NCBI GenBank assembly: GCA_000743035.1
Contig: CP008940.1
Coordinates: 30,001-62,000, forward strand
Length of the DNA stretch: 32,000 nucleotides
Source of the DNA: Candidatus Paracaedimonas acanthamoebae
GTDB lineage: Bacteria > Pseudomonadota > Alphaproteobacteria > Caedimonadales > Caedimonadaceae
Reading direction: 5' to 3'
The position numbers and the translations under genes were made by a program. The notes under the pieces were generated by a model. The model was not told the DNA's origin, searched no databases, and saw only the letters and a list, made by a program, of their open reading frames with translations. Of this stretch, positions 1 through 25,106 are shown one piece after another (the first letter of the stretch is position 1; every line of letters starts with the position of its first letter).

Positions 1-2645
1 CCGCGAATACGCCTTCTCAAGCGTTGATTGAGCGGGGCCCCCATTTATTCCAAGGCCTTCAATCCTCATTGCCGAAAGAGATGGCGCTGAAGCTGAATGA
101 GCCGATCCTTTTTAGCCTTCCTGAAGGGCAGTATGATCGGCAAGCCTTGCGCTCTTATTTGATTACGCCGCCTTCCTATCATGATCCTCATGTCCGTGAT
201 CACCTCGCGCAAATCATAGAGAAGGAAGCCTATCTGTTGGGGAAGAAAGGGTCTCATACGCATTTTGATCGCTCTCGCCTGATCGCCAAGAAAGGAACTC
301 TGACGACAGGGACCTTGAAGGTGACAAAGCAGGTGGATTGTGTCGAGCAAACGCCCAAGCCTTTCATAAGAGAAGGAGCCTCGACAAAGCTGATAGGGTT
401 TTTTAAGAAAAAGGAGAAAGAGGCGCCAAAGCTTCCTAAAAAGTTTCAGTATGTTTCCCAACCTGGGGGGGATTTATGGGTGGATCAGTTCGATCTTCAT
501 GCCGAGCAAGCCAACATTGATCTTGGTGAGATGAAGTCAAAAATCTTGTGGTTAGATATTGAAGACTTATTGACGACAGGAACCCTTCACACAGAGCTGC
601 TGATTGAGGATGTTGGGCATCTTGCGATTCAACGTCAGCACCACACATGGTCCGAGACGCATGAGATGAAGAAGATGTGGAAGCGGAAGAATGTTTGGGG
701 TCGTGTGAAGAGGAAGAAGGAGATCAAGAAGCAGACAGTGACCCTATCAGAAGCGCTTCCAGAGGAGGTGAGTGGCCTTTATAAATATGGCAGGGTTTTG
801 AAGGATCCCAAAGAGATCCAAGAGATCTTTGCCGGGTATGAGAAAGTCAGAGAGCTTCAGTCCTTGTTTGCTCAAGGCGTCACCCTTATCGTTGGGGAAG
901 GAGGCTGGTCGCCAGAGACTCAAAAGAAGATGCACCTTTCGCCTTTGATCACGAGGTCATTAATGGAGGATTCGACGAGTTGCCGAGGGATGCGCAAGGA
1001 AGAGATGCAGCCAAGTTATAGGGTTGTGCGGGCAAAGGTCCTCTCGGAAGGGCCGATCCATCCTTTCTCTCATCAGGATATTCATCTGGTGGGGGTTGAG
1101 ATGGAGGGGAAGAAGGGGTCTGCTCTGATTGAGGCGAAGAGAGATCTGACGGTTGAAGACGCCAGTGTGATGCAGCCGCAAAAGAGGGAGCTTTATAATA
1201 AGAAGCGAGCAATCCGCGAGCGTGGAGGCTTTAAAGAGCTTCAGGTCCCGAACACCATCACGATGCCTGGCAAGGTTGTGTTGAAGGCGCAAGGGAAGAT
1301 TCAAGGTCATCGGCCTGAGGTGCGAACTGAGTTGGTCACTGAACCGCCCCAGGTTGATCTCCCCCGTCCTCTTCCTCATCAAGAGTTGTATGATCTCTGT
1401 GTGGGTCATCGTCCGGGCGGGAATCAAGCCCTTGCGATGGTGGCGAGATTAGGGACAAGTCTTCTTCTTTTTAACCCGGCGACAAGTTGGGCAGCGGGAC
1501 TCTTTAAGGTTGCAACGGATGGGGTGGTGGCGGCGATGGGAGGAGCAGCCTTGACGAGTGTGGCGTCTCAGACGGTGGGTTCTGCGGTGATGCATCAAGG
1601 GAACCTGAAGCAAATTGGCAAGGAGTTAACGTCATCCCATTTTACAAGAACTTTAATAATAGACACCGCCAGTGCGGGTTTGATGCATGAGCTGAGTGGG
1701 ACTTTTAATCTTCCCAAGCAACCCGAAGGATGGCAGCAGCATCTGAAAGTGAATGCGGTGAGGTCGATGGTCTCATCAGGATTGAACATGACGATAGGGG
1801 GTGTAAAGCCAGAGGAAGCCTTGTTATCTGCAGCTCGGATGATTGTTGCTGGAACACTTGGCGGCTTAGGCGCAAATGAAATCGCGCAACTCTATAGTGA
1901 TGGTCAGTTTGAGTACCTTACCCATAAACTTGCGCATGCGATTTTAGGGGGAGGGATGGGGGCGATCCTTTCGGATGATATTGAGAAAGGCTTATTATCT
2001 GGAGCCATTGGAGGCTTTTTTGGTGAGATTGCAGGGGAAGAGCTTGTTAAGAGGTTAGGTGATAAGCAGTTGACGACCGTTTTAGGACAGATGGATGAGA
2101 CCGTAATGAAGGCTCAGTTGACCGCCGCTATTGCCACGATGCTTGCAGGCGAAGATATTGGTGTTGCCACCTTCACAGCAGAGAATGCGATCCGAAATAA
2201 TAGCTTTTTGGTGAAGAAAATAGGAAAGAAGCTCTTAGAAAAGGTTGCTTCTAAACAGGCTTTGAAAAAAGTTGCTAAGGATATTGATACCTCTCCTTTT
2301 TCAAAAGAGACAAAGAAGTTAATTGGTAGAAATCATGAATACAAAGCAGAGTTATTGGAGCGCGAGGGCGCGAAGAAAGGAGCATCAACGTTAAGAGCGG
2401 CTCAACAGGAAATAAAAGGACAGCAAATAGATAAGGCTTTAGAAAGAGGTGTTAAATACAATCATATAGAAAAAGCTGAAAGTGCTCAAAGAGGCCTTAC
2501 CAGGCATATTCAAAGAATAAATAATCGTTTGAGTTATCCTGAATTACCTCAAATTGAGCGTCAAGCGCTGCAGAAAGAGCTTTCCCAGTCGAGCAAATTA
2601 TTAGATTATGCAAAACAGTTTTTAAAAGATAACGTAGATAAGTAG
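1..2645 (+). CDS. C-terminal ~880 aa of a CdiA/FhaB-type (two-partner-secretion) polymorphic toxin; 5' partial, continues upstream of the window
   Basis: The frame of track ORF 24..2645 stays open back to nt 3, so the TTG at 24 is not the real start. The translation shows the Gly/Ala-rich helical pre-toxin region typical of FhaB/CdiA exoproteins (GAALTSVASQTVGSAV, THKLAHAILGGGMGAILSDD, GAIGGFFGEIAGEE; DUF637/PT-VENN-like by eye). It ends in a VENN-like motif AENAIRNN (nt 2178-2201). A 147-aa Lys/Glu-rich C-terminal domain (nt 2202-2642) of unassigned family follows. Confidence 0.7.
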   Translation, partial: ANTPSQALIERGPHLFQGLQSSLPKEMALKLNEPILFSLPEGQYDRQALRSYLITPPSYHDPHVRDHLAQIIEKEAYLLGKKGSHTHFDRSRLIAKKGTLTTGTLKVTKQVDCVEQTPKPFIREGASTKLIGFFKKKEKEAPKLPKKFQYVSQPGGDLWVDQFDLHAEQANIDLGEMKSKILWLDIEDLLTTGTLHTELLIEDVGHLAIQRQHHTWSETHEMKKMWKRKNVWGRVKRKKEIKKQTVTLSEALPEEVSGLYKYGRVLKDPKEIQEIFAGYEKVRELQSLFAQGVTLIVGEGGWSPETQKKMHLSPLITRSLMEDSTSCRGMRKEEMQPSYRVVRAKVLSEGPIHPFSHQDIHLVGVEMEGKKGSALIEAKRDLTVEDASVMQPQKRELYNKKRAIRERGGFKELQVPNTITMPGKVVLKAQGKIQGHRPEVRTELVTEPPQVDLPRPLPHQELYDLCVGHRPGGNQALAMVARLGTSLLLFNPATSWAAGLFKVATDGVVAAMGGAALTSVASQTVGSAVMHQGNLKQIGKELTSSHFTRTLIIDTASAGLMHELSGTFNLPKQPEGWQQHLKVNAVRSMVSSGLNMTIGGVKPEEALLSAARMIVAGTLGGLGANEIAQLYSDGQFEYLTHKLAHAILGGGMGAILSDDIEKGLLSGAIGGFFGEIAGEELVKRLGDKQLTTVLGQMDETVMKAQLTAAIATMLAGEDIGVATFTAENAIRNNSFLVKKIGKKLLEKVASKQALKKVAKDIDTSPFSKETKKLIGRNHEYKAELLEREGAKKGASTLRAAQQEIKGQQIDKALERGVKYNHIEKAESAQRGLTRHIQRINNRLSYPELPQIERQALQKELSQSSKLLDYAKQFLKDNVDK

Positions 2646-2654
2646 GAGCGTTGG

Positions 2655-3227
2655 ATGGCTCAAAAATGGAAAAGTGTTAAACAAATAAGAGATGAATATT
2701 TTGATACAGGAACAATCTCTCCTGTCTCTATGGCACAGCTTAAAGAATACTTAAAAGGAGAAGATGAGAATGAGTTATGTAGAGCTATCAGTTTGGTAAC
2801 TGATGCGAGTTTAATGCACCTTGTCCCATTAATGGCTCAACATCTTGACCATGAAGATTCTTATGTCAGAGAAAGCTTAATAGGGAAGCTTCTCGGTATT
2901 CTTTGCTTACCAGAATACGCTGAGAAGGGATTAGATATGATTGAGCATGATGAAGAACCTGGGGTAAGAGATTTAGCTCTTAGCAATATAGGGGCTGTTA
3001 TAAATGAAATAAAAGATAAAGAGCTTAAGAAGAAAATAGCACAAAAACTTATAGACATATTATATTCTGAGACAGAAGATCATCTAACACGTTCAGCTTC
3101 ATACGTTTCTATATTAAAGGATTTAGAAGTCCCTGCAATAAAACGGCCAGATATTGATTTAATTATTGGCAAAGATTATCCAATTGATGAAGAAAAAATA
3201 GAAAAATTTAAAAAGCGTTATTTATAG
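2655..3227 (+). CDS. putative cognate immunity protein (HEAT-like helical repeats)
   Basis: The ATG lies 9 nt after the toxin stop and is preceded by AGGAG (nt 2644-2648). The product is 190 aa, acidic, and has no signal peptide. It shows HEAT-like repeats (HEDSYVRESLIGKLLG, EEPGVRDLALSNIGAV). The position directly 3' of a polymorphic-toxin tip is the canonical immunity position. Function is inferred from context only. Confidence 0.55.
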   Translation: MAQKWKSVKQIRDEYFDTGTISPVSMAQLKEYLKGEDENELCRAISLVTDASLMHLVPLMAQHLDHEDSYVRESLIGKLLGILCLPEYAEKGLDMIEHDEEPGVRDLALSNIGAVINEIKDKELKKKIAQKLIDILYSETEDHLTRSASYVSILKDLEVPAIKRPDIDLIIGKDYPIDEEKIEKFKKRYL

Positions 3228-3304: not shown

Positions 3305-3528
3305 AGATCCGGGAGCGCGAAGGCTTTAAAGAGATTCAGGTCCCGAACACCATCACGATGCCTGGCAAGGTTGTGTTGAAGGCGCAAGGGAAGATTCAAG
3401 GTCATCGCCCTGAGGTGCAAACTGAGCTGATCACTAAAGCGCCCCAGGTTGATCTCCCCCGTCCTCTTCCTCGGCAAGAGCTGTATGATCTCTGTGTGGG
3501 TCATCGCCCAGGCGGGAAACAGAGCATG
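3305..3528 (+). pseudogene. orphan duplicate of an internal segment of the upstream toxin gene (matches nt ~1209-1432)
   Basis: Hand alignment gives ~220 nt with about 15 substitutions and no indels. The translation IREREGFKEIQVPNTITMPGKVVLKAQGKIQGHRPEVQTELITKAPQVDLPRPLPRQELYDLCVGHRPGG matches toxin residues AIRERGGFKELQVPN...CVGHRPGG. An in-frame TGA lies immediately 5' of the homology. The homology ends at the IS3 remnant. Confidence 0.85.
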
Positions 3529-5046: not shown

Positions 5047-6861
5047 TTATGAGTCCTTCCATGTCAAATAAATGCCGTTTTCTGCATTCTTTAAATAATG
5101 TGTCGGTGTGAAAGAATGCTGCTGGGCGAGCTTTAAGAAAGCTTTGCTTGCTAACGTATAAAAATAAATGTCAGATTGTGCCTGTTGGTGGGTTATGATA
5201 AGGCGCTTATCATTTGTTTGATCTGCTTTTAAGATGCTTGACGTTGCCTCCTCAAGATGGACCTCAAAGGGTTGTCTTGTTAAAAGTAAGGTCGTCGGCT
5301 GCCGTAAAATTATTTTGTATCCTCCATCTTTTCCAAATGGAATATAAGTTTTAATGTATGGCTTTAGCTCTTTCTTAGCCCATTGTTTAAAAGCTTGATG
5401 TAATACGCCTATGGCTCCATTTGAATTAACATGATTGCCCCGTCCAGTGATAATAGTGCATTCTTTCTCAAAATTATTATATCTTTTCACCATAAATTCC
5501 TGAACTTTATTTAATGCTTCTAAAGAGGATGTTTTATGAAGATCTAAGATTATTTGTTTGACATTATGAAAACAAAAATAAAGGCGTTTTTCTCGGTCCT
5601 CAATGATAGTAGCAGCTGGCCCTTGTAGTTCTTCATAAAAATACTTAAAAAGGGTGCCATTATTGTAACTAAAAAGCTCATTTACAGAAAAGGAAGCATC
5701 AGGCCTTAATTCAAAGACAAAGGTAACATAAGGATGCTTTGCTCTCTCCAAAGTTAAAGCAACTTCTTCTTTTAAAGCTGCATAACATTGCTCGAGGGTG
5801 TCCTTGTTAAGAAGGGAAGGTTTTACAAGAATTTTATCTTGAAACCCATGCTTCCCTTTCTCAAAGTCTTCTTCTTTAAAACCAGCTCGGACCATTAAAT
5901 TATAAAAAGTTCCTTGGTCTAAGCGCGTAGTATCAACTGCTCCCCCATAAAAATGGTAAGCAAATGAGTTTCGAGCTTGGTTTTCTTTTTGAGTATAATT
6001 ATTGATTGTTAGTCCTTCATGATAGATATCCCAAACCCCTTCTGCTGATTTGTTACCTTCTGTCCCATAGCGATCCTCACTTATACCGATGGGATATTTA
6101 TATGATCTCATATGTGCCAGTATCCACTGCAGATGGTCATAAATATCTTGGCCATCTAATTTGTATTTAAAATGCCGTATTTCATACGTTGGATCTTCTG
6201 CAGTTTCAGCAATTAAAAAATCAAGGTAAGGCCAAAATTGTTGCCAAGAGTATTTCTGAAAATAGATATCTGTAGCTTGCGAATCAATTTTCAGATGGTT
6301 GGCAATAAGAGTAGCAAGGTGTTGAGGACGATTTTGCCGTTGTTTGATGAGAGGGGCTCTACGATTGAGGTCAAGAGCATAACATAAATCTTCTAAGGTT
6401 GGAGCGCTTGTCATCTTAAGAAACCGATCCATTTCTTGAGAAGCTGCTAAGAAATTTCCTGACTCTTCAAAAATTTCAACCTGTGCTCTTATTTTCTTTA
6501 AAGTTTTTGGAGTATTTGTTTTTTGAGTTTTTACTTTTAAAATAGAGTGGGGAGATGAGGTTGATTGCTGACTTTGCTTATTTTCCCTCTTATCTACTTT
6601 AGCCTTTTGTAAATTGGTTTTCTTTTTAGATTTTTTTTGGAGAGAAGGGCCTATAAGGCTAGACGCACAAACCCTTGAAGGAGCTGCGCCAGCCTCTCCT
6701 CCCTCATTTAGTATTTTCTGTTTACCTTTCCAACTTGAATAAACAATGCTGGAGACCTTAGGATTATCTTCTTGCTCTTGACTTGCTATACTTGGATAGG
6801 AGTTTATTAAGAAGAAAGTACTTAATAAAAAAAGTAAAGGCTTGCGCGTAAAATATTTCAT
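5047..6861 (-). CDS. exported Smr-domain protein (604 aa) with Lys-rich tract and large unknown central domain
   Basis: ATG with GGGGAG RBS. Signal peptide MKYFTRKPLLFLLSTFFLINSYPSIA|SQEQED. Lys-rich tract LQKKSKKKTNLQKAKVDKRENKQ. Smr domain at aa 438-520 (nt 5302-5550): ILDLHK...CTIITGRGNHVNSNGAIGVLHQAFKQW...GKDGGYKIILR. Confidence 0.75.
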   Translation of the reverse strand: MKYFTRKPLLFLLSTFFLINSYPSIASQEQEDNPKVSSIVYSSWKGKQKILNEGGEAGAAPSRVCASSLIGPSLQKKSKKKTNLQKAKVDKRENKQSQQSTSSPHSILKVKTQKTNTPKTLKKIRAQVEIFEESGNFLAASQEMDRFLKMTSAPTLEDLCYALDLNRRAPLIKQRQNRPQHLATLIANHLKIDSQATDIYFQKYSWQQFWPYLDFLIAETAEDPTYEIRHFKYKLDGQDIYDHLQWILAHMRSYKYPIGISEDRYGTEGNKSAEGVWDIYHEGLTINNYTQKENQARNSFAYHFYGGAVDTTRLDQGTFYNLMVRAGFKEEDFEKGKHGFQDKILVKPSLLNKDTLEQCYAALKEEVALTLERAKHPYVTFVFELRPDASFSVNELFSYNNGTLFKYFYEELQGPAATIIEDREKRLYFCFHNVKQIILDLHKTSSLEALNKVQEFMVKRYNNFEKECTIITGRGNHVNSNGAIGVLHQAFKQWAKKELKPYIKTYIPFGKDGGYKIILRQPTTLLLTRQPFEVHLEEATSSILKADQTNDKRLIITHQQAQSDIYFYTLASKAFLKLAQQHSFTPTHYLKNAENGIYLTWKDS

Positions 6862-6886
6862 ATTGATGTCTCCCCTTTAATTTATG

Positions 6887-7045: not shown

Positions 7046-7750
7046 TTACTTGAGCTCTAAGCTTATACAACCCTTTGCCGTGATTTTTGTATAAGCGCTA
7101 ACAGTGCTATTGGATGGCTGCTTTGATTGTTTAGATTTCTTTTTTCTTTTTATAATTTTTGGCTCTACCTTTTTTTCTAAAGCAGGAACTACACTTAGTT
7201 TAAAATTCTTAAAGGGAGCATTTGCTCCATATAAGCTTACCGTATGCTTCCTTCTCTTCTTCTCTTTACTCTTTTTAGTATGGTGACCATTTTTTAAGGT
7301 AACCTTCCACCCACCTTCCTTATTAATAGAACGTATTTTCTCAATATAAGGTTCAAATTTTTTACTACATAAATAATGATAGCATCTATTCCAAAGAAGC
7401 CCCATTATTCCTTGAGGATTATTAAGTCCCCTTCCTGTAATAATTTCCACGGTAGAAGCATGGTTGCGATGTGCTTTCCTAATAAATTGATCAACCCATT
7501 TAAATTTAACCTCCGTAGGTACTTTCCCATGAAGGTCGAGAAAAGTATAAGGTTGCCTCTTTTGAGCTGAAATAGTCTCTTCTTTCTTGAGGAAAACAAT
7601 GAGAGCTTGCTGGCTACAAATAGGAATTACTTCTTCAACTAAGGCGCTAAAGAAAGGCTTTTGTAAAAATTCTAAGCACTGATGGGCAACTAGACTTTGA
7701 TCCTCTTGTGAAGTGAAATCTTCGAGATCTACTAGGCTCGCATTTTGCAA
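7046..7750 (-). CDS. Smr-domain protein (234 aa) with strongly basic C-terminal tail; start codon uncertain
   Basis: Smr domain at aa 70-153 (nt 7292-7543): LDLHGK...VEIITGRGLNNPQGIMGLLW...NKEGGWKVTLK. The tail carries KKSKEKKRRKH and KIIKRKKKSKQSKQ. The only start in frame is TTG at 7750 with no visible RBS, and there is no internal Met before aa 116. The gene may be 5'-eroded. Confidence 0.6.
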   Translation of the reverse strand: MQNASLVDLEDFTSQEDQSLVAHQCLEFLQKPFFSALVEEVIPICSQQALIVFLKKEETISAQKRQPYTFLDLHGKVPTEVKFKWVDQFIRKAHRNHASTVEIITGRGLNNPQGIMGLLWNRCYHYLCSKKFEPYIEKIRSINKEGGWKVTLKNGHHTKKSKEKKRRKHTVSLYGANAPFKNFKLSVVPALEKKVEPKIIKRKKKSKQSKQPSNSTVSAYTKITAKGCISLELK

Positions 7751-7870: not shown

Positions 7871-8347
7871 TCATTTCTTTCCAACAATAAACTTTTCCTT
7901 AATAGTATAAATTCTTTCTTCATGAGTAATTCTCTTAAGTAATTCTTCCTTATCTTCAAATAAAGTGCCTTTTGCAGAGTGAGCATGATGGTAATGTATT
8001 CCAAGAAGATATGCCCCCTTAAAGCTTGCGCCATTAATATTAGCATCTGTTAGATCTGACTTTTTCAACTTTGCTTTATGGAAGTTTACTTTAGAAAGAT
8101 TAGCACGGTGAAATAATGCTCCTGCCAAATTTGAGTGAGAAAAATTAGCCCCTCTCAAATTAGCACCCGTAAAATCAGCCCCTTTTAAATTCATATCTCT
8201 AAGATCTGCACCTTGTAAGTTAAACTCTACAGCACAAACCCGCTGACCAGCATTTACTTGTACATGCAAGCTTTTCAAATCTTCCTCATCAAAGGCATGA
8301 GCAAGGTGTACAAAAAAGAATAAAAGTAGGGAAAGGCTATGTTTCAT
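7871..8347 (-). CDS. exported pentapeptide-repeat protein
   Basis: Signal peptide MKHSLSLLLFFFVHLAHA. Contiguous A(D/N)LxX pentapeptides: GADLRDMNLKGADFTGANLRGANFSHSNLAGALFHRANLSKVNFHKAKLKKSDLTDANINGASFKGAYL. Confidence 0.8.
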   Translation of the reverse strand: MKHSLSLLLFFFVHLAHAFDEEDLKSLHVQVNAGQRVCAVEFNLQGADLRDMNLKGADFTGANLRGANFSHSNLAGALFHRANLSKVNFHKAKLKKSDLTDANINGASFKGAYLLGIHYHHAHSAKGTLFEDKEELLKRITHEERIYTIKEKFIVGKK

Positions 8348-8524: not shown

Positions 8525-8953
8525 TTAGGCTTTTATGCAATGCAAATAGTCATCTTTGCCATAATCAATAATTTTTTGATCCCTTGTAAGAAGCGGTATG
8601 CCAAGAACTCTTGCTGTTGCAACGATAATCCTATCAGCGGGATCACCGTGAAAATTCCCAGGAAGAGAAGCACTCTCAACAGTAACTTCTGGGGTGAGAG
8701 GATATAAAGTAATGCCTGGTGCCTCAAGACTTCTTTTGATCCAAGCCAAGCAAGGCTGATTCAAGAGTATTCTTCCTTTAGCGTGGAGCATGCTTACTTC
8801 CCAAAGAGAAATAGCGCTTATAGCAATAGCACCATCAATAAGACATGCCTCTATAACATTTCTTGCTTCTGAAGAAAGTTCTTTTTCTCCACTCATGAGC
8901 CACAGAAAAGCATGAGTATCTAAAATTAGTCGTATATCAGGATAATGCTGCAT
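8525..8953 (-). CDS. vapC: PIN-domain toxin VapC
   Basis: ILDTHAFLW...SLWEV...DPADRIIVATA...LTRD carries the conserved PIN acidic residues. ATG at 8953 is preferred over the track TTG at 8968. The gene overlaps the upstream antitoxin gene. Confidence 0.8.
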   Translation of the reverse strand: MQHYPDIRLILDTHAFLWLMSGEKELSSEARNVIEACLIDGAIAISAISLWEVSMLHAKGRILLNQPCLAWIKRSLEAPGITLYPLTPEVTVESASLPGNFHGDPADRIIVATARVLGIPLLTRDQKIIDYGKDDYLHCIKA

Positions 8954-9179
8954 CCCACTTTTCCTCAATTGGGCTAATGATGTCTCCCTTTACTTTGAGA
9001 GACTGTTTCATGAAACCAAAAAGAGAAGAGGGCGTCTCTGTATAAGGCACCAGTTTAGCAACAGGAACACCGCGCTTAGTGATAATGATAGTTTCATGCT
9101 TTTGTTCAGTGAGGTCCATGAGCTTTAAACATTTGGCTTTAAATTCACCTGCGCCAATTTGGATCATAGTTATCTCCAT
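8937..9179 (-). CDS. Phd/YefM-family antitoxin
   Basis: The sequence (MEIT)MIQIGAGEFKAKCLKLMDLTEQKHETIIITKRGVPVAKLVPY is typical of the Phd/YefM N-terminus. The gene overlaps vapC. An alternative ATG at 9167 lies behind GGAGA. Confidence 0.75.
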   Translation of the reverse strand: MEITMIQIGAGEFKAKCLKLMDLTEQKHETIIITKRGVPVAKLVPYTETPSSLFGFMKQSLKVKGDIISPIEEKWDAALS

Positions 9180-9436: not shown

Positions 9437-9465
9437 TTGAAAAGGCCTAAGAGACTATATTTAAT
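9437..9465 (+). promoter_or_regulatory. sigma70-like promoter of the tandem RNase III gene
   Basis: TTGAAA (9437-9442), a 17-nt spacer, then TTTAAT (9460-9465), then 25 nt containing GGGGAG, then ATG 9491. The TTG used as ORF start in the track is the -35 hexamer. Confidence 0.45.
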
Positions 9466-9490
9466 TGTAAATTATAGGGGAGACATCAGT

Positions 9491-11440
9491 ATGATATACT
9501 TTACGCATAAATATTTATCTATTTTATTCTATGTTTTTTGCTTAATCCAAGCCTTACCAATCGCAGCAAGCCAAGAACAAGAAGATCAACTTAAAATACT
9601 TAAGGCACCTTTTGTAGGTCAGAGAGGAAAACAAAAAGCTCAAAGAGAGGAAGAAGGCGAGCCCAAAACGCTGGATTTCCACCATGGTTCTGCTAGTTCG
9701 AGTTCACTTGAAAGTATAGATATTTCTAAAGACGAGACGCAACTTCTCCGAGAACTGTCTCAAGAAATAGATTATACGTTCAAAAAGCCTGAGCTTTTAC
9801 ATTTAGCTTTAAGGCACAGTACCACTGATATTGGACATTCCCATTCATCGCGAGGATATGAACGTCTAGAATTCTTAGGTGATGCTGTCTTAGAGCATGT
9901 AATACGAGAATTTTTATGGAAGGATTTTCCGAAACTTAATGCCAATCAATTATCAAAAATTTGTTCTACACTTACCTGCAATGAAACTCTTGCTCACTTA
10001 TCAAAACACTTAAGACTTGCAGCAATATCTAAAAGATTAAAGCTATCCACCTTTACAAGAGAAGAAACCTTACAATCTCATCGACAAGCTGATTTTGTCG
10101 AATCCCTCATTGGCGCCATTTATAGCGATGGGGGAATAGAAGCAAGCCATAAATTTTTTAAGAGATATTATACAAGTGAAAGAGCTCCAACCTTTATTTC
10201 TAATATTATGAATTCTATCTCTCAAGAAGCTATTGAAGAAAGCCCGCTTTCTGCTTTATTCAGTAACAATCTTTATAAGAGAGCCTTTTATGAATTTTCT
10301 CAGTTTGAAGGCTTTCAATTTGTGGGGGAGGGCATCCTTAGATTTATTCTCCGTGATATGCTTTATCATCGCTTTCCTGAAAGCACAGAAGGGGAGCTTG
10401 TTCAAAAGTATAATAGTCTGATTTCTGCAGAAAGCTTATCTGCAATAGTAACGCAATATAACTTAAATCCTCACCTTAGTAAGCATTCTTTAAAATCATT
10501 TTTAGGCTTATTGTATCTTGATAAAGGGTTAGAATCAGTCCAAAACTTTATTCTTTGGCACTGGACAGGAGAAGAAGCTCCTAAAGCAGTTGTTGGTGCC
10601 CTTGAAAAAAGGATGGACTCAGTGCCTTCCCTTGAATCATCTTATTTTGTAAGCCTTCCTGCTCGTACCCAAATACAATTTACACCAAAAAATATTCTTC
10701 AAGAAGTTTTACAGATGCTGCGTGATGAGCCTTACTATTCTCATGAGAAAACAGGCCCAGATCATAATCCTACCTTTACAGTAACTGTTCAGTCTAAGTT
10801 AGAACACTTTAAGTCACTGCAAGGGCAGGCTGGTAGATTGCTTGACGCTCAACAAGAAGCAGCTCAAAAAGCTCTTGATATTTTATCTGTTAAAGTGTTG
10901 CTTACAACTATTGGAAACAAGGAAGACGCCGTTAAAAATGTGGGCTATTGCCTTAAGCTTTTAGAAGCTAAATTACGTTCCTTAGGCATTAGAGAATTTA
11001 GCTACCATAAAATTGCTAAAAGCCCTTATTTAAAGAACAATATTTATCGCTTTGAGCTTCAAGGGAAAAACGTTTATCCAACTTTTGGGGAAGACGAAAC
11101 TATAGAAGCGGCCTTATTACAAGCGCTGGGCAAAGGGATATTCAAACTGTGTAGGGCAGAATATAAGAAAGCTGCTCACAGTGTAAAAGGGACTCATCAA
11201 GATATCCCTTTAGAAGATAACCGCCTTATATTTTTAAAAAGTATTTTGGAAGAAACACTGAAGCCTCTAGGGTATGAAAACTTTACTTATATCCCTCATT
11301 CAAAAAGTAAAGAAAAAATACAGCCATATTTAGTATATGAGATTCAAGTCGGGAGTTTAAGACCGGCTAAAGGACAAGGGCTTACACCCCTTCAGGCTCA
11401 GATTAACGCATTACAAGGATTGCTGGATTCTATGGTCTAA
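9491..11440 (+). CDS. exported protein with two RNase III domains (first intact, second catalytically degenerate) and one canonical plus two probable dsRBD modules
   Basis: Signal peptide MIYFTHKYLSILFYVFCLIQALPIAA|SQEQED. Domain 1 carries ERLEFLGDAVLEHV (nt 9860-9883) and ADFVESLIGAIY. Domain 2 carries EGFQFVGEGILRFILRDMLYHRFPESTEGELVQKYNSLISAESL (signature at nt 10307-10330), with the distal acidic pair lost (HSLKSFLGLLYLD). dsRBD at nt ~10685-10888 (GPDHNPTFTVTVQ...AQQEAAQKALDIL). Two further similar modules lie at ~10931-11152 and ~11219-11434. Confidence 0.75.
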   Translation: MIYFTHKYLSILFYVFCLIQALPIAASQEQEDQLKILKAPFVGQRGKQKAQREEEGEPKTLDFHHGSASSSSLESIDISKDETQLLRELSQEIDYTFKKPELLHLALRHSTTDIGHSHSSRGYERLEFLGDAVLEHVIREFLWKDFPKLNANQLSKICSTLTCNETLAHLSKHLRLAAISKRLKLSTFTREETLQSHRQADFVESLIGAIYSDGGIEASHKFFKRYYTSERAPTFISNIMNSISQEAIEESPLSALFSNNLYKRAFYEFSQFEGFQFVGEGILRFILRDMLYHRFPESTEGELVQKYNSLISAESLSAIVTQYNLNPHLSKHSLKSFLGLLYLDKGLESVQNFILWHWTGEEAPKAVVGALEKRMDSVPSLESSYFVSLPARTQIQFTPKNILQEVLQMLRDEPYYSHEKTGPDHNPTFTVTVQSKLEHFKSLQGQAGRLLDAQQEAAQKALDILSVKVLLTTIGNKEDAVKNVGYCLKLLEAKLRSLGIREFSYHKIAKSPYLKNNIYRFELQGKNVYPTFGEDETIEAALLQALGKGIFKLCRAEYKKAAHSVKGTHQDIPLEDNRLIFLKSILEETLKPLGYENFTYIPHSKSKEKIQPYLVYEIQVGSLRPAKGQGLTPLQAQINALQGLLDSMV

Positions 11441-11664: not shown

Positions 11665-12615
11665 TTAATATTGCTCACAAAAAATTCGTCCATCTCTCAC
11701 TAAAGCATTCGCAAGAATTAGTAATTTCCTCATTGCAGCAGTTGCAGCGATTTTGAATGGTTTCTTGGCTTGGGTGGTTAACCTGGTAAAGAAGCTCTTA
11801 ATATAACTGTTGAATTCCTTTGCAGAGATAATGGACATATAAAGGGCTTTCCTTATTTGCACTCTTCCACCTTGAATAAAGCGCTTACCTTGCTTTTTAC
11901 CACTATCCCAGTTAATAGGGGCAAGCCCTGCAAGCTTAGCTATTTGTTTTGCTGAAAGAGTACCAAGCTCTGGTAAATAACAAATCAGAGAAATAGCAAC
12001 TATTCTACCTATACCTGGTATGCTAATTAATAACTTATACTTTTGAGCTAAACCTGGTTCCTTTTTAAGGGCGTCTATCATTCCATTTTCTAAATCTTTT
12101 ACTTGGCACTCTAATACATCAATTAGCTTATCCATTTGCTTGACTATAGCTAGGTTAGTTATTTGCTGCTTCTGGATTTTTTGAATTTTCAATATCTCTA
12201 CTAATTGCTCTCTACGACACAAGAGTTCTTTTAAAAAGTTAGCATGATTGGGACTTAAAGCAGCAGCGCGCATATCTGGGTTACTTACATAGCGAGCAAT
12301 TAAGCTTGAATCAATTTTATCTGTCTTAGCTATGATACCTAGGCTTCTAGCATAATCTCTAACCCATTTAGCCTGAATAATATACACTTGTAAGCCATTT
12401 GCCAAAAGAGCATGAGCACAAAGTTTCTCATAACCGCCTGTAGCCTCAAACCCAACTTTAGTTACGTTATGCTGCTTAAGAAAGATAATGATCTCTTCAA
12501 AACTTTGAGCTGTATTATTGAATATCTTATAATTGCCAAGGGGATGAATATAAACATCTAGCTTGGTTTTGCTAACATCAATGCCAGCAACGATACTTAA
12601 TGAGCTCATAATCAT
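11665..12615 (-). CDS. IS110-family (DEDD) transposase; element boundaries not resolved
   Basis: N-terminus IVAGIDVSKTKLDVY...GFEATGGYE. C-terminal region IPGIGRIVAISLICYLPELG...GKRFIQGGRVQIRKALYMS...AAMRKLLILANAL. These are hallmarks of the IS110 family. Confidence 0.85.
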   Translation of the reverse strand: MIMSSLSIVAGIDVSKTKLDVYIHPLGNYKIFNNTAQSFEEIIIFLKQHNVTKVGFEATGGYEKLCAHALLANGLQVYIIQAKWVRDYARSLGIIAKTDKIDSSLIARYVSNPDMRAAALSPNHANFLKELLCRREQLVEILKIQKIQKQQITNLAIVKQMDKLIDVLECQVKDLENGMIDALKKEPGLAQKYKLLISIPGIGRIVAISLICYLPELGTLSAKQIAKLAGLAPINWDSGKKQGKRFIQGGRVQIRKALYMSIISAKEFNSYIKSFFTRLTTQAKKPFKIAATAAMRKLLILANALVRDGRIFCEQY

Positions 12616-16461: not shown

Positions 16462-17290
16462 GGCCCTGTTGCAAAAAGTTTTGTCTTCGTTCAGAGTTTC
16501 TAAAAATTAGAGGACTATTGGATGAATGATTTTAAGTGGCGTCATTTTCAAGGGGATATTATTCTTGGATGCGTAAGGTGGTATTGTAAATACGGGATCA
16601 GCTATCGGGACCTTGAAGAAATGATGGAAGAAAGAGGCATTACGGTTGATCATACAACTCTTAATAGATGGGTAATCACTTATGCTCCAGAGATTGAGAA
16701 AAGGCTCAGGTGGTATTGGAAACCAGGGCTTGGCTATAGCTGGAGAGTTGATGAAACTTATGTAAAAGTTAAGGGTAAATGGGCTTACCTTTATCGAGCT
16801 CTTGATAAGCGAGGGCGTACTATAGACTTTTATCTTTCATCGACAAGAAATATCAGTGCTGCCAAACGGTTTCTTTCAAAGGCTTTAAGAAAGTTTAAGG
16901 AATGGGAAAAACCAAGTAAAATTAATACAGATAAGGCACCTACTTATGCTGTAGCGATCAAAGAATTAAAGAAGGAAGGACTTTGTCCTCAAGACCTTGA
17001 GCATCGACAGATTAAGTATCTCAATAACCTTATTGAAGCTGATCATGGTAAACTCAAACGACTGATTAAACCAACTCTAGGGTTTAAATCTTTGAAAACA
17101 GCTTATGCAACGATTAAAGGGTTTGAAGTGATGAGGATGTTTAAAAAGGGACAGATGGATCTTTGGAAATATCGCCAAGGACTCAAGGGAGAAATCCGTC
17201 TCGTTAACCGACAATTCAGTGTCTATACTGTTTAATTGAAAACTGCAAAAAGACCTAAATCTGCTCAAATAATATTTTTGCAACAGGGCC
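16462..17290 (+). mobile_element. intact IS6-family (IS26-like) insertion sequence, 829 bp
   Basis: Terminal IRs are GGCCCTGTTGCAAAAA (16462-) and its complement TTTTTGCAACAGGGCC (-17290). Compare the IS26 IR GGCACTGTTGCAAA (from memory). Single 237-aa transposase ORF. The flanking 8-mers CGAAAAAG and TTCCTTTT differ, so there is no target duplication. Confidence 0.85.
16522..17235 (+). CDS. IS6-family DDE transposase
   Basis: MNDFKWRHFQGDIILGCVRWYCKYGISYRDLEEMMEERGITVDHTTLNRWV...WRVDETYVKVKGKWAYLYRALD...INTDKAPTY...NNLIEADHGKLKR is the classic IS6/IS26 Tnp pattern. The 237-aa length fits the family. Confidence 0.9.
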   Translation: MNDFKWRHFQGDIILGCVRWYCKYGISYRDLEEMMEERGITVDHTTLNRWVITYAPEIEKRLRWYWKPGLGYSWRVDETYVKVKGKWAYLYRALDKRGRTIDFYLSSTRNISAAKRFLSKALRKFKEWEKPSKINTDKAPTYAVAIKELKKEGLCPQDLEHRQIKYLNNLIEADHGKLKRLIKPTLGFKSLKTAYATIKGFEVMRMFKKGQMDLWKYRQGLKGEIRLVNRQFSVYTV

Positions 17291-17296
17291 TTCCTT

Positions 17297-18511
17297 TTAA
17301 GGTGCCATGCTTACGTACCTATCAATATACTCATAAAATTCGTTTTTAAATTTATCAAACACTTTATCTAGATTAGAATTACTATTAAGTGCTTCACTAA
17401 AATTACTCCTGATATTGTCAATAATGCTACCCACTTTTCTTTTTGCTACTTCTTTAATTGGAGTTTCCTTGAGGATTGTAGAAATAATCTGATAGCCGTA
17501 TACCTTAAAGCATTTTGATGCACTATTCAGAAAAACTTGTAGAAAATTTCTTTCTTTATTTTCTGCCCAGGCTATAAGAGTTGTACCCATAATATTTTCA
17601 GCAATATTTACACCTATCATTTGGTTATCACATACTTTTTTCTTTTCCTTTATCTTTTGTTGTTTTTCATGGTAAATTGATTCCCACTCAGAAGGATAGT
17701 CTTCTGAATTTTCTTTTTTTAAATTTTTCAATTTTTGAGCTTTTAACTCTAATTTTTTTTGTTGTTTTAGGGTTTCTGATTGCAGATAAATACTTCCTAG
17801 TTGAATGATACCAAGACCACTAGTTAAAAGTGGCTCAAGTCTACCAAAAACGATTGAATCACTTCCACCATAAACTACCTTACTTACACCATTAATCATT
17901 TGGTTATATCGTAACCCATTTTCTACAAAATTTGCTTGACTATTATATCCTAAAATGTCTAAGAAGTGATAAAGACCTGTACCACTACATTGTAGCCACC
18001 AAGTAATACTCTCAACTTTTTTAGCTACGTAGCTTGCTTTACGTAACCCTTTAATTATTCCTGATTCAGGCAAATATTCAGTTAATTCATCTATTGAGTT
18101 TCTAATAAAATCCAGTTCCTGTTTTGCTTCAAGGTTTCCACTATCTTTAGACATAATAAGATACTTCATTCCCTCTTCTGCAGATTTTTCTAAGTATTTT
18201 CCCTCCAAATAGAAATGAGCCAAGATATAAGCAGCACGATGATGACCTGAGTGAGCTGCTAGCTTAAAATATTCTATTGCCTCTTGCATTTGTTCTTCAT
18301 CTTGTAGAGCGACAGCTTTTATATAATAATACTTAGGGGTTTCAACCTGAAAATTGAGTGTTTCTTCATCTAATACGGAATTTATGGTTCTATAGGCCAC
18401 AATTTCACTATTACCCTCTCTTTCAAGCTCACTTTCTAAAGGATTGCTTGCCATCCCTTGGTATACATAAATAAATTTTATAATAGTCAGCATTAAGTAT
18501 TTCAATTTCAT
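17297..18511 (-). CDS. Sel1-repeat protein with N-terminal hydrophobic segment and unknown C-terminal half
   Basis: Sel1-like unit MQEAIEYFKLAAHSGHHRAAYILAHFYLEGKYLEKSAEEGMKYLIMSKDSGN. N-terminal hydrophobic segment MKLKYLMLTIIKFIYVYQG. A Lys-rich coiled segment lies mid-protein. Confidence 0.55.
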   Translation of the reverse strand: MKLKYLMLTIIKFIYVYQGMASNPLESELEREGNSEIVAYRTINSVLDEETLNFQVETPKYYYIKAVALQDEEQMQEAIEYFKLAAHSGHHRAAYILAHFYLEGKYLEKSAEEGMKYLIMSKDSGNLEAKQELDFIRNSIDELTEYLPESGIIKGLRKASYVAKKVESITWWLQCSGTGLYHFLDILGYNSQANFVENGLRYNQMINGVSKVVYGGSDSIVFGRLEPLLTSGLGIIQLGSIYLQSETLKQQKKLELKAQKLKNLKKENSEDYPSEWESIYHEKQQKIKEKKKVCDNQMIGVNIAENIMGTTLIAWAENKERNFLQVFLNSASKCFKVYGYQIISTILKETPIKEVAKRKVGSIIDNIRSNFSEALNSNSNLDKVFDKFKNEFYEYIDRYVSMAP

Positions 18512-18682: not shown

Positions 18683-20072
18683 ATGGACCTGCCCGTTATT
18701 CTCATATGATATGAGAAACGGCATCAAGGTGCCAAAAGTTCAAGTAAGATGAACTTTAATCACTTAACAGGAGGTCCACATGGAAATAAAAGCATTAGGA
18801 ATTGATCTTGGCAAGAACTGGTTTCAGCTACATGGAGTTGATAAGAGAGGCAAAGCTGTCTTTCAAAAAAAGGTGAACAGAGAAAAGCTTCCTTTACTTA
18901 TTGCGAATCTTCCTAGATGCATGATTGGAATGGAAGCTTGTGCAGGAGCCCATTTTTGGGCTCGTAAGTTTCAAGAGATGGGACATGAAGTAAAGCTGAT
19001 TGCTCCTCAATTTGTTAAGCCTTACGTAAAAGGGAATAAGCATGATCAAGCAGATGCGGCCGCTATATGTGAAGCAATGAGCCGTCCTCATATGAGATTT
19101 GTTCCTATAAAATCTTTGGCACAACAGGAGATTTTAGCTATTCATCGCGTTCGCACCCGCCTTGTGCAAGCCAAGACCTCTCTTGTAAATGAGATTCGAG
19201 GATTACTTTTAGAGCAAGGGATTACAATCTCTCAAGGTATTATCAAGTTTGAACAATCTTTGACAGACTTATTAGATCCTGAGATTGAGGAACTTTCTCC
19301 TCATTTTAAGGAGTTTTTAGGGGAGCTCGTTAAAGAATTTAAGTTCATTAAAGAAAAGATAGAGAGATTTGAAGAACACCTCCAACAGCTTGGAAAAGAA
19401 AATACTGCTGTGAAAAGATTAATGACAATTCCTGGAATAGGTCCGATAGGGGCCTCTGCTTTAGTCGCATCAATTGGGGATATCCGACAGTTTAAGAATG
19501 GTAGAGAAGTATCAGCATGGCTTGGCCTTGTTCCAAAGCAACATTCAACAGGAGGTAAACCTCGGCTTTTAGGAATTAGCAAAAGAGGAGACATGTATTT
19601 AAGGACGCTTCTTATTCATGGTGCTAGATCTGTTATAAGCTGGGCTATGCGGCGCAGAAATCCAGTCTCTTCTCTTGAAAAATGGTGTTTAGGATTGATT
19701 GAAAGGCGAGGCTTGAATCGAGCAACAGTTGCACTTGCCAATAAAATTGGGCGAATGATTTGGGCTCTCCTTGCGAAAGAAGAAGATTATAAGATGTATG
19801 CAATTGCATAACTGAAAGAGTTTAGTTCTGAAGAGAGGTCGTAGAGAAGAAAGATTGATGGCAATAATTGGTCAAACCACCTTGAGGAAAAATCCGTTTA
19901 AACGTAAGGCTTTTAGAAGCCGTCGAGTTGATTGGGATTCTTTAAGGGCGGATTCCCATCATGGCTAAAGGTAGAAATACTTTACTAATAAGCCGTATAC
20001 ATGACTGCAACCAATTTACTCTCTTATCAATTTTATTCTTCAAGAAGGCCTTGACTCAGGCGGCAGGTCCAT
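18683..20072 (+). mobile_element. IS110-family element of the IS1111 type (sub-terminal inverted repeats)
   Basis: An 11-bp perfect inverted repeat, ATGGACCTGCC (18683-18693) and GGCAGGTCCAT (20062-20072), brackets the 343-aa transposase ORF. An 8-mer TTAAGGTA occurs just outside on both sides (18660-18667 and 20081-20088). Confidence 0.65.
18780..19811 (+). CDS. IS110-family (DEDD) transposase
   Basis: MEIKALGIDLGKNWFQLHGVD...IGMEACAGAHFWARKF...NKHDQADAAAICEA...IPGIGPIGASALVASIGD...GGKPRLLGISKRGDMYLRTLLIHGARS...VALANKIGRMIWALL are diagnostic IS110-family motifs. Confidence 0.9.
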   Translation: MEIKALGIDLGKNWFQLHGVDKRGKAVFQKKVNREKLPLLIANLPRCMIGMEACAGAHFWARKFQEMGHEVKLIAPQFVKPYVKGNKHDQADAAAICEAMSRPHMRFVPIKSLAQQEILAIHRVRTRLVQAKTSLVNEIRGLLLEQGITISQGIIKFEQSLTDLLDPEIEELSPHFKEFLGELVKEFKFIKEKIERFEEHLQQLGKENTAVKRLMTIPGIGPIGASALVASIGDIRQFKNGREVSAWLGLVPKQHSTGGKPRLLGISKRGDMYLRTLLIHGARSVISWAMRRRNPVSSLEKWCLGLIERRGLNRATVALANKIGRMIWALLAKEEDYKMYAIA

Positions 20073-22660: not shown

Positions 22661-23746
22661 ATGGCTATATTTCATTTTCAAGCGGGGTATACATCTAGAA
22701 GCGGCAGTAAATCTGTCTGTGCACATGCAGCTTATATTGCAGGGCTAGTTCTAGAGGATGATCGTACAGGCCAAATATGGGATTACTCAAAAAGACAGAA
22801 AAGCTCTATATTTTCAACCATATTAGCTCCATCAGGAACACCAGAATGGGTTTATGATGCTCAGAAACTGTGGAATGCTGCTGAGTCTTTTGAAGACAAT
22901 ATTGCTCACCAAAGGTTTAAGGGACATAAAGATCCCGTGAAAAATCAAAAAAGCCTTGCTGCAAAAGAAAAATTTCTTATGACTTGCAAGACAAGCTACA
23001 CAGTCATGTTTGGGCTCCCAATTGAAATTGAAGACAGAGAGCATCAAAAAGAACTTGCTCAACGACTAGTTCAAGCGTGCTATGTTGATTATGACCTTAT
23101 AGCTCAATATGTTATTCGTGATAAGGGAGATAATCCTTGCCTTCACGCAATTATCACCACCAGACCACTGCTTGAGAATGGCACATTCTCAAAGAAGCGT
23201 TTTGTTATTGATAAACGAAAACTGTTTGAAATACGAGCAGAGGTTGCGAGAATTGCAAATATGTTTGGCCAAGAGAAGGGTTATAATTATAACCTTGATC
23301 CACGCTCGTATAAAGAGCAAGGCATCAACCTTATACCAACAAGAAAAGTTGGTATTAAAATGAAGTCCCCAAGCTATCAACGGAAGTTGCTTGAGAATGA
23401 GGATATCAAACGCCAGAATATTGAAATGATCCTCACACATCCAGAAGAAATTATTAAGGTTGTCATCTCCGGTAAGAAATCTTTTACCCAAGAAGATATA
23501 ATAGCTGAAATCTCTAAGCACTTAGGTGAAGACGCGCAATACTATGCAATCATGAAAGCAAAAATAGAAGGGCAGGACATGACCGATATTATGAATGAGA
23601 TTTACTCTTCTGGTCTTTCAGCAATAAACAAAGAAGAATCTTTAAGCATTCTTGAGAGTTTCTCTGCGCAAATATTATCTCATGAGATGCTCATTAGTAT
23701 AGGAGAGAATAGTAAGGGAGAAACTCTTTACAAGTTTAAAGGTTAA
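22661..23746 (+). CDS. MobA/MobL-type relaxase-domain-only paralogue of TraA (361 aa) with degenerate His triad
   Basis: MAIFHFQAGYTSRSGSKSVCAHAAYIAG parallels TraA MAIYYADTSYISRNGAGSVCSHSAYISA and RSF1010 MobA MAIYH (from memory). It is colinear with TraA aa 1-~360 and then stops. The metal-binding motif reads IRDKGDNPCLH versus IHDKKGNPHLH in TraA. Confidence 0.8.
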   Translation: MAIFHFQAGYTSRSGSKSVCAHAAYIAGLVLEDDRTGQIWDYSKRQKSSIFSTILAPSGTPEWVYDAQKLWNAAESFEDNIAHQRFKGHKDPVKNQKSLAAKEKFLMTCKTSYTVMFGLPIEIEDREHQKELAQRLVQACYVDYDLIAQYVIRDKGDNPCLHAIITTRPLLENGTFSKKRFVIDKRKLFEIRAEVARIANMFGQEKGYNYNLDPRSYKEQGINLIPTRKVGIKMKSPSYQRKLLENEDIKRQNIEMILTHPEEIIKVVISGKKSFTQEDIIAEISKHLGEDAQYYAIMKAKIEGQDMTDIMNEIYSSGLSAINKEESLSILESFSAQILSHEMLISIGENSKGETLYKFKG

Positions 23747-25019: not shown

Positions 25020-25085
25020 AGAGTTTTGTATCAAAACTCTATAGGCGCATTTAACGACGATTAAAAATCGTCTTGTGCGGCCCTG
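25020..25085 (+). promoter_or_regulatory. predicted oriT: two hairpins followed by a MOBQ-like nick-region core
   Basis: IR1 is AGAGTTTTG-TAT-CAAAACTCT (25020-25040). IR2 is GACGATT-AAA-AATCGTC (25056-25072). TTGTGCGGCCCTG (25073-25085) follows immediately and resembles the RSF1010/Ti core ..GTGCGCCCT.. (from memory). It lies between divergent traC-like and traA genes. Confidence 0.5.
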
Positions 25086-25106
25086 CGGGCGGCTGTATAT
25101 TGTCGT

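Follow-up and report, generated by a model that had tools for sequence, protein, structure and literature searches.

Canonical bacterial RNase III, the product of rnc, is a cytoplasmic homodimer of about 225 residues that has two active sites, and its gene usually lies in a lepB-rnc-era arrangement. The kinetoplastid editing endonucleases, for their part, cut the mRNA strand only. Their activity requires a pair of RNase III proteins, only one of which is catalytically competent (PMC9508840). Two-domain RNase III enzymes have been assigned to the Drosha and Dicer subfamilies and are attributed to gene duplication (PMC7827160, a review of Dicer), and each of their domains cuts one strand (for Drosha, PMC7049713). 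Here we describe a bacterial gene whose product, called tandem RNase III hereafter, carries two RNase III domains in one polypeptide, one of them with an active centre that is dead as judged by alignment. The gene lies in a 32,000-nucleotide stretch of DNA (the window; positions 30,001 to 62,000 of contig CP008940.1, assembly GCA_000743035.1), which is part of a 65,130-bp plasmid of Candidatus Paracaedimonas acanthamoebae (Holosporales, Caedimonadaceae), an endosymbiont of Acanthamoeba.

An open reading frame (ORF) is present at positions 9437-11440 of the forward strand, and its ATG at 9491 gives a protein of 649 residues. The features of the gene are listed below in window coordinates with the evidence for each. 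This evidence includes Pfam matches, a hidden Markov model (HMM) built from 16 canonical bacterial RNase III catalytic domains, AlphaFold2 models with their predicted local distance difference test scores (pLDDT), and ratios of nonsynonymous to synonymous substitution rates (dN/dS) relative to a 92%-identical metagenomic orthologue (P0224, L084). The C-terminal modules have the fold of the double-stranded RNA (dsRNA)-binding domain (dsRBD).

9468-9494, forward strand: 5' cassette with the ribosome-binding site GGGGAG (9477-9482) and the ATG at 9491; near-identical to the 5' end of an Smr gene (6858-6884, reverse strand)
9491-11440, forward strand: coding sequence of tandem RNase III, TAA stop included; ORF, Pfam and a dN/dS of 0.37
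9491-9571, forward strand: signal-peptide-like N-terminus, residues 1-27; hydrophobicity relative to canonical rnc controls and similarity to the Smr protein N-terminus
9572-9739, forward strand: charged, Ser-rich linker, residues 28-83, opening with SQEQED and predicted to be disordered; pLDDT 24-38 and composition
9740-10186, forward strand: RNase III domain 1 (live), residues 84-232; PF00636, alignment, bacterial catalytic-domain HMM (133.9 bits) and a dN/dS of 0.10
10187-10276, forward strand: inter-domain linker, residues 233-262, partly helical, with low confidence at residues 251-266; AlphaFold2 models
10277-10606, forward strand: RNase III domain 2 (dead), residues 263-372; PF00636, bacterial catalytic-domain HMM and a dN/dS of 0.21
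10673-10915, forward strand: canonical dsRBD (module 1), residues 395-475, with GPDH in the beta1-beta2 loop; PF00035 and model
10928-11188, forward strand: divergent dsRBD-fold module 2, residues 480-566; fold in the model and hhalign to module 3 (97%, E = 2e-11)
11204-11437, forward strand: divergent dsRBD-fold module 3, residues 572-649; fold in the model and hhalign to module 1 (62%, E = 7.5e-5)

The two RNase III domains are each recognized by profile searches. The whole protein matches PF00636 (E = 3e-32) in two stretches, with domain 1 scoring 111.8 bits, and domain 2 by itself (residues 235-395) reaches 41.7 bits (E = 2e-10) where the cut-off is 27. Against the bacterial catalytic-domain HMM, domain 2 scores 43.1 bits (E = 9e-14), and this HMM detects both nuclease domains in every member of the family described below. 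Both domains from each of eight family members were also aligned to the RNase III proteins of Escherichia coli and Aquifex, using reference sequences whose numbering matches the published catalytic positions. Domain 1, which is all-helical in the models, carries the superfamily signature ExxExxGD (ERLEFLGD, residues 124-131, nucleotides 9860-9883) and the distal DxxE (DFVE, residues 201-204, nucleotides 10091-10102). Its residues E124, E127, D131, D201 and E204 correspond to the E. coli catalytic residues E38, E41, D45, D114 and E117 and are invariant in all eight aligned members. At these five positions domain 2 has E273, Q276, E280, H332 and K335, which fall within EGFQFVGE (residues 273-280, nucleotides 10307-10330) and HSLKS (residues 332-336), and the domain is short of approximately 20 residues of the alpha4-alpha5 loop. 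Every aligned member has lost D114 in domain 2 and has Lys or Arg at the E117 position, while the E41 and D45 positions vary among the eight, with EFLGD retained in P0001 and P0002. As read from the alignment, tandem RNase III is a protein with one intact and one dead active centre. The E. coli rnc70 change is E117K, which preserves dsRNA binding and abolishes cleavage, and PDB entries of the Aquifex equivalent, E110K, bound to dsRNA are among the fold matches of the full-length model.

These results agree with an earlier note on this DNA, in which the 649-residue ORF was placed at ATG 9491 and described as an RNase III domain with all of its acidic catalytic positions, a second domain derived from RNase III but catalytically degenerate, one canonical dsRBD, and two further modules of similar fold. 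The start and all motif coordinates proved exact. The alignment upheld the five acids of the first domain and the loss at residues 276, 280, 332 and 335 in the second, whose ancestry is borne out by both profile searches and by the two-domain model. The reading of the C-terminal region was likewise sustained by Pfam, AlphaFold2, Foldseek and hhalign.

The full-length AlphaFold2 model (pLDDT 75; predicted template modelling score, pTM, 0.72) comprises a helical N-terminal segment, disorder at residues 22-78, two all-helical domains and three alpha-beta-beta-beta-alpha modules. Drosha, DCL3, DCL4 and Dicer head its matches in the PDB. A model of the two nuclease domains (residues 80-375), computed from an 18-sequence family alignment, has a pLDDT of 88.2 and a pTM of 0.88. 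When template modelling scores are normalised to this 296-residue query (TMq), the two-domain model scores 0.69 against Drosha (5b16_A), 0.66 against DCL3 and 0.64 against Dicer, in comparison with 0.37-0.43 against single-domain chains of bacterial RNase III. Because one domain is half of the query, a TMq well above 0.5 requires both domains to be superposed in one frame. The scores for Drosha, DCL3 and Dicer are the basis on which domains 1 and 2 are predicted to pack as an intramolecular pseudo-dimer with one active centre, and the models in this way favour the Drosha/Dicer-class topology suggested in the earlier note.

Downstream of the nuclease domains, the dsrm profile (PF00035) matches residues 399-465 with 39.6 bits (E = 8e-10; cut-off 23), whereas Pfam recognizes neither module 2 nor module 3. 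Secondary structure in the AlphaFold2 model places alpha-beta-beta-beta-alpha modules at residues 399-475, 484-565 and 576-648. According to hhalign, modules 2 and 3 are homologous to each other and module 3 aligns in register with module 1. Furthermore, Foldseek aligns the full-length model with proteins that have several dsRBDs, namely TARBP2, Loqs-PB and R2D2, over 266-293 columns. Modules 2 and 3 can be assigned to the dsRBD fold on the strength of these models, although their capacity to bind RNA is uncertain because they contain neither a GPxH loop nor the basic motif of helix 2.

The N-terminus has the layout of a signal peptide, with an n-region that includes K7, a 15-residue h-region (residues 8-22), and a c-region, P-I-A-A-S, that presents (I/A)-A-(A/S) before Q28. 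Heuristically, it shows the hallmarks of a Sec/signal peptidase I substrate, namely a positive n-region, an h-region and small residues at -3 and -1, and cleavage after A26 or S27 is predicted. The Kyte-Doolittle maximum over 12 residues is 2.48, versus at most 1.39 by the same measure for canonical rnc proteins (n = 16). A hydrophobic N-terminus is present in 16 of 17 homologues (maximum 1.75-2.8), such that the signal-peptide-like start noted earlier is a conserved trait absent from canonical rnc. Inspection revealed neither a lipobox nor an RR motif, and a lipoprotein or Tat signal was ruled out. Judging from the leader, tandem RNase III is probably exported.

The same leader occurs on a second gene in the window. 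A 604-residue Smr-domain protein (PF01713, E = 8e-10) is encoded at 5047-6861 on the reverse strand, divergently from the RNase III gene, and the two genes have in common their 5' untranslated region, ribosome-binding site and first approximately 50 codons, including the stretch that encodes SQEQED. On the RNase III side, the shared stretch covers 9468-9586 of the forward strand, and the ribosome-binding site, GGGGAG, is a Shine-Dalgarno sequence 8 nucleotides 5' of the ATG. The N-termini of the two proteins are 47% identical over 49 residues, and the 27-nucleotide pattern of the 5' cassette occurs twice where no occurrence is expected by chance. Because one leader is attached to two unrelated nuclease passengers, we argue that the N-terminal region works as a module for targeting. 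An Rfam scan gave no match, and a scan for promoters and terminators performed no better than on shuffled sequence.

Relatives of tandem RNase III are few. A word-indexed search of 5.8 billion proteins returned only seven, with 35-40% identity, and an exhaustive HMM search of 1.84 billion representatives added ten further members, for about 17 in all. Below these members, HMM scores fall to eukaryotic Drosha/Dicer-like proteins (approximately 150 bits) and ordinary rnc proteins (approximately 110-130 bits). Scanning genome contigs with the family alignment recovered canonical rnc loci only, driven by generic RNase III motifs, and tblastn of a plasmid collection, in which the present plasmid is not included, found ordinary rnc genes only. 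A search of a literature library found no description of a natural bacterial tandem RNase III or of an endosymbiont RNase III effector. Thus, the architecture singled out in the earlier note is rare and does not represent a common or characterised bacterial family.

The dN/dS values point to purifying selection on the gene as a whole (0.37), which is strongest in domain 1 (0.10) and also evident in domain 2 (0.21). As judged from these substitution patterns, the gene is functional and under purifying selection. A pseudogene was ruled out, given that ORFs are intact in approximately 18 lineages and given the value for the whole gene. C-terminal regions differ among family members. P0088 (828 residues) and P0090 (787 residues) have extra canonical-looking dsRBD modules (GPDHAP, KAEAK) and Lys-rich C-terminal tails, and P0082-P0084 have long helical repeat C-termini instead.

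Regarding origin, domain 1 scores 60.9 bits against E. coli RNase III (7r97) and 37-40 bits against either Drosha domain, while Drosha is the best PDB match by sequence when both domains are summed. In a neighbour-joining tree of 84 catalytic domains, which has low resolution, the domain 1 sequences of the family form one clade (75% bootstrap) and the domain 2 sequences form another (30% bootstrap), with roughly congruent branching in the two subtrees. Mean distances place both family domains closer to bacterial than to eukaryotic domains, and bootstrap support for joining either domain with eukaryotic RIIIDa or RIIIDb is 0%. The tree and distances are most simply explained by a single ancient duplication of a bacterial-type domain. 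Likeness to the Drosha/Dicer topology probably arose by convergence rather than inheritance, because the tree gives no support for an origin from eukaryotic Drosha or Dicer. Transfer of a Drosha/Dicer gene from eukaryotes was rejected, in view of this lack of tree support and the greater closeness of domain 1 to bacterial domains.

The comparison with described systems can now be made more precise. Like Drosha and Dicer, tandem RNase III has two RNase III domains per chain that form an intramolecular dimer (predicted here) and are followed by a dsRBD. In contrast to those enzymes, its domain 2 is dead, Pfam domains typical of them (PAZ, helicase, DUF283 and the Drosha central domain) are missing, and it has a bacterial signal-peptide-like leader. 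Domain 1 is closest in sequence to bacterial rnc (TIGR02191), which shares the signature and catalytic residues of that domain as well as dsRBD1. However, tandem RNase III has 649 residues, a leader, a dead domain between domain 1 and the dsRBD, two extra modules and a plasmid location, and it departs from the class 1 rnc architecture (one catalytic domain and one dsRBD) and its housekeeping context. Its TIGR02191 score of 167.6 bits reaches the equivalog cut-off of 166.25 only as the sum of three stretches. The kinetoplastid KREN1-3 and KREPB proteins also pair an active RNase III domain with a non-catalytic one, but they do so on separate proteins of a large, eukaryotic, mitochondrial complex, and they have zinc fingers and no signal peptide. 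Predicted structures in BFVD of RNase III proteins from giant viruses, a Satyrvirus (A0A3G5AGS1, TMq 0.65) and Bodo saltans virus (A0A2H4UV56, TMq 0.63), match both domains, which indicates that this arrangement also exists in viruses of protists. These proteins are viral rather than bacterial and are only 12-15% identical to tandem RNase III.

Two other metagenomic proteins deserve mention in this regard. P0159 (536 residues; L089, 10001-11611; JGI 3300013121) resembles tandem RNase III in its hydrophobic N-terminus and its pair of live (ERLEFLGD ... DIVEA) and degenerate (KKLNYLGT ... DAVRS) domains. It differs in having no dsRBDs and a full-length second domain, and it falls outside the family in the neighbour-joining tree. 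Perhaps, then, the combination of a leader with a live/dead tandem arose more than once. The P0159 gene adjoins a gene for a 2,399-residue MobA/helicase/Toprim protein, a giant MobA-type relaxase, on L089. P0092 (2,391 residues; JGI/Logan, 59.5-kb contig) has a helicase-like N-terminal part and two full RNase III plus dsRBD units with intact catalytic motifs, and its RNase III domains group with bacterial ones in the tree.

The gene is flanked by a PIN/Phd toxin-antitoxin pair and an IS110 transposase. At five homologue loci, the neighbours encode patatin, F-box, LRR, ankyrin/Sel1, BRCT, S8 protease and giant Ser/Thr kinase proteins, and neither lepB nor era lies beside the gene at any of the five. 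The plasmid location and the absence of lepB and era from the homologue loci argue that this is an accessory gene rather than a housekeeping one. This setting on a plasmid and among effector-like genes is also compatible with the function suggested in the earlier note, a nickase or dsRNA binder whose target would lie outside the cytoplasm and might belong to host RNA interference. We take the name 'Cca' to stand for Ca. Caedibacter acanthamoebae and thus for Ca. Paracaedimonas acanthamoebae. Judged by its genome features, this organism appears to be the source of the 'Cca' genome of PMC5751055. That genome has a guanine-plus-cytosine (GC) content of 37.9% and four plasmids, three of which carry vir-type type IV secretion system operons able to translocate effectors (PMC5751055).

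We propose that tandem RNase III is an accessory, exported, pseudo-dimeric RNase III with a single active site, which nicks or holds dsRNA that is most plausibly the host's, and we give this proposal a probability of roughly 0.5. The protein would be exported by the Sec pathway, with its leader removed near A26/S27, and would presumably pass beyond the periplasm. Domain 1, which is live, would pack against the dead domain 2 in the manner of Drosha and Dicer and so create a single dsRNA-binding valley with one Mg2+ catalytic site composed of E124, E127, D131, D201 and E204. Because there would be only one such site, we expect that A-form dsRNA is bound and either cut in one strand or held, without a staggered double cut. 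The canonical dsRBD would clamp the RNA, and the two divergent modules might add contacts to RNA or protein. Since this bacterium lives as an obligate symbiont inside Acanthamoeba cells, the likeliest substrate would be non-self RNA, such as host dsRNA, small-RNA precursors or small interfering RNA duplexes. Both nicking and a host RNA target are what we infer from this architecture and lifestyle.

Several observations weigh against this proposal, and some of them lend themselves to other explanations. Module 1 has GRLLDAQQ in place of the usual KKxAK, a weakened basic motif, and the corresponding segments of modules 2 (GEDETIEAA) and 3 (GQGLTPLQAQ) retain neither of the RNA-binding features discussed above. 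The dN/dS values of dsRBD1 and module 3 are near 1, with few substitutions. A collection of 15 billion proteins contains five products of neighbouring ORFs of this GenBank plasmid but neither the 649-residue form of the RNase III product nor a 667-residue form; public records may lack an annotation for the gene or treat it as a pseudogene. A Sec leader alone reaches only the periplasm, and we found neither an outer-membrane secretion signal nor dedicated secretion genes beside the gene. These last points would suit an enzyme that serves the bacterium itself in the periplasm or envelope, in nucleotide salvage or in defence against incoming RNA, with no delivery to the host. A single-site RNase III would be a poor bulk degrader for such a role, though, and it would need dsRNA substrates of a kind not known from the periplasm. 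The consistent placement of homologues amid eukaryote-like effector genes is also hard to reconcile with a purely periplasmic function, which we consider unlikely. The protein could instead be a catalysis-independent dsRNA binder that sequesters dsRNA or docks on a dsRNA-binding partner of the host. Its dead centre has a change of the E117K type, which in E. coli leaves binding intact, and its three dsRBD-fold modules resemble the partner proteins TRBP, Loqs and R2D2. If catalysis were dispensable, however, it would be unexpected that the five catalytic residues of domain 1 are invariant and that this domain is under the strongest purifying selection, and we therefore think a pure binder decidedly improbable.

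The remaining explanations dispense with either the pseudo-dimer or the accessory role. Domain 1 might pair with the domain 1 of a second chain to give two sites and cleavage of both strands, leaving domain 2 as a structural or regulatory appendage. The AlphaFold2 runs were made in monomer mode and are compatible with such pairing, a further point against our proposal, and domain 1 is closest to homodimerising bacterial RNase III. Nevertheless, the model confidently packs domain 1 on domain 2 in the Drosha/Dicer arrangement, domain 2 has kept its signature and core helices and lost catalytic residues only, as a dimer partner might, and the subtrees of the two domains are roughly congruent. Dimers between chains thus seem rather unlikely. 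It is far harder to accept that tandem RNase III is simply the housekeeping enzyme of the organism, or a degenerating copy of that enzyme, extended in an unusual way and with an incidentally hydrophobic N-terminus. The gene is plasmid-borne amid insertion sequence (IS) elements, lacks the lepB-rnc-era context at all five homologue loci, and belongs to an extremely rare family whose conserved leader is shared with an unrelated nuclease. Decay is also at odds with intact ORFs, purifying selection and the absence of frameshifts from the orthologues. What speaks for a housekeeping role is that the TIGR02191 equivalog cut-off is just reached and that, with an alphaproteobacterial rnc query, no rnc from Paracaedimonas appeared among the best 120 of 5,610 matches; the latter result also counts against an accessory enzyme. 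We regard this last explanation as very remote.

If our proposal of a single-site, exported pseudo-dimer is right, it invites speculation about RNA silencing. RNase III proteins act as suppressors of silencing for some viruses. One could imagine, although we hold this to be doubtful, that protist endosymbionts independently evolved a Drosha-like RNase III, disabled one site and export the enzyme to blunt or redirect RNA silencing in the host, with the shared leader marking exported RNase III and Smr nickases. A precedent of sorts is LegK1, a Legionella effector that suppresses RNA silencing and aids growth in Acanthamoeba, and amoebae have canonical Argonautes (bioRxiv 10.1101/2022.11.16.516792). 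Should silencing indeed be the target, tandem RNase III would correspond, as a bacterial enzyme, to the RNase III suppressors of viruses. If it does reach the host, the protein would be the first endosymbiont effector of such a type to target RNA enzymatically and would offer a direct way to ask whether RNA silencing in amoebae plays a part in their symbiosis with bacteria. Regardless of its target, the protein represents the same two-domain solution in bacteria, apparently reached by convergence, and a natural counterpart of the laboratory RNase III with one dead subunit. A natural dsRNA nickase could also serve as a reagent.

The other features of the window that were recorded around the gene are as follows.

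8525-9179, reverse strand: PIN/Phd toxin-antitoxin pair
11665-12615 (reverse strand), 16522-17235 (forward strand) and 18780-19811 (forward strand): two IS110-type transposases and one IS6-type transposase
17297-18511, reverse strand: Sel1-repeat protein

A close copy of the Sel1-repeat protein (AIL13764.1, in the same 90%-identity cluster) is encoded on another plasmid of this organism, 71 kb in size. Between the two leader-bearing genes, reverse-strand ORFs at 7046-7750 and 7871-8347 encode a second Smr-domain protein (234 residues), which has no obvious leader, and a pentapeptide-repeat protein (158 residues) with a signal-peptide-like N-terminus. At the start of the window (24-3227, forward strand) lies a CdiA-like C-terminal fragment (DUF637, weak PT-VENN and an Ntox28 toxin), followed by a HEAT-like, 190-residue probable immunity gene. 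The first 2 kb of this region have a GC content of 49-52%, versus approximately 36% elsewhere. Of the two copies of a 215-nucleotide direct repeat (93% identity), one lies within the CdiA-like ORF (1212-1426) and the other just 3' of the immunity gene (3307-3521), so that the repeat brackets the toxin tip together with the immunity gene. At the opposite end, an open frame of at least 2,312 residues (25065-32000, forward strand) runs off the 3' end of the window, and its N-terminus resembles the shorter MobA-like ORF at 22661-23746.

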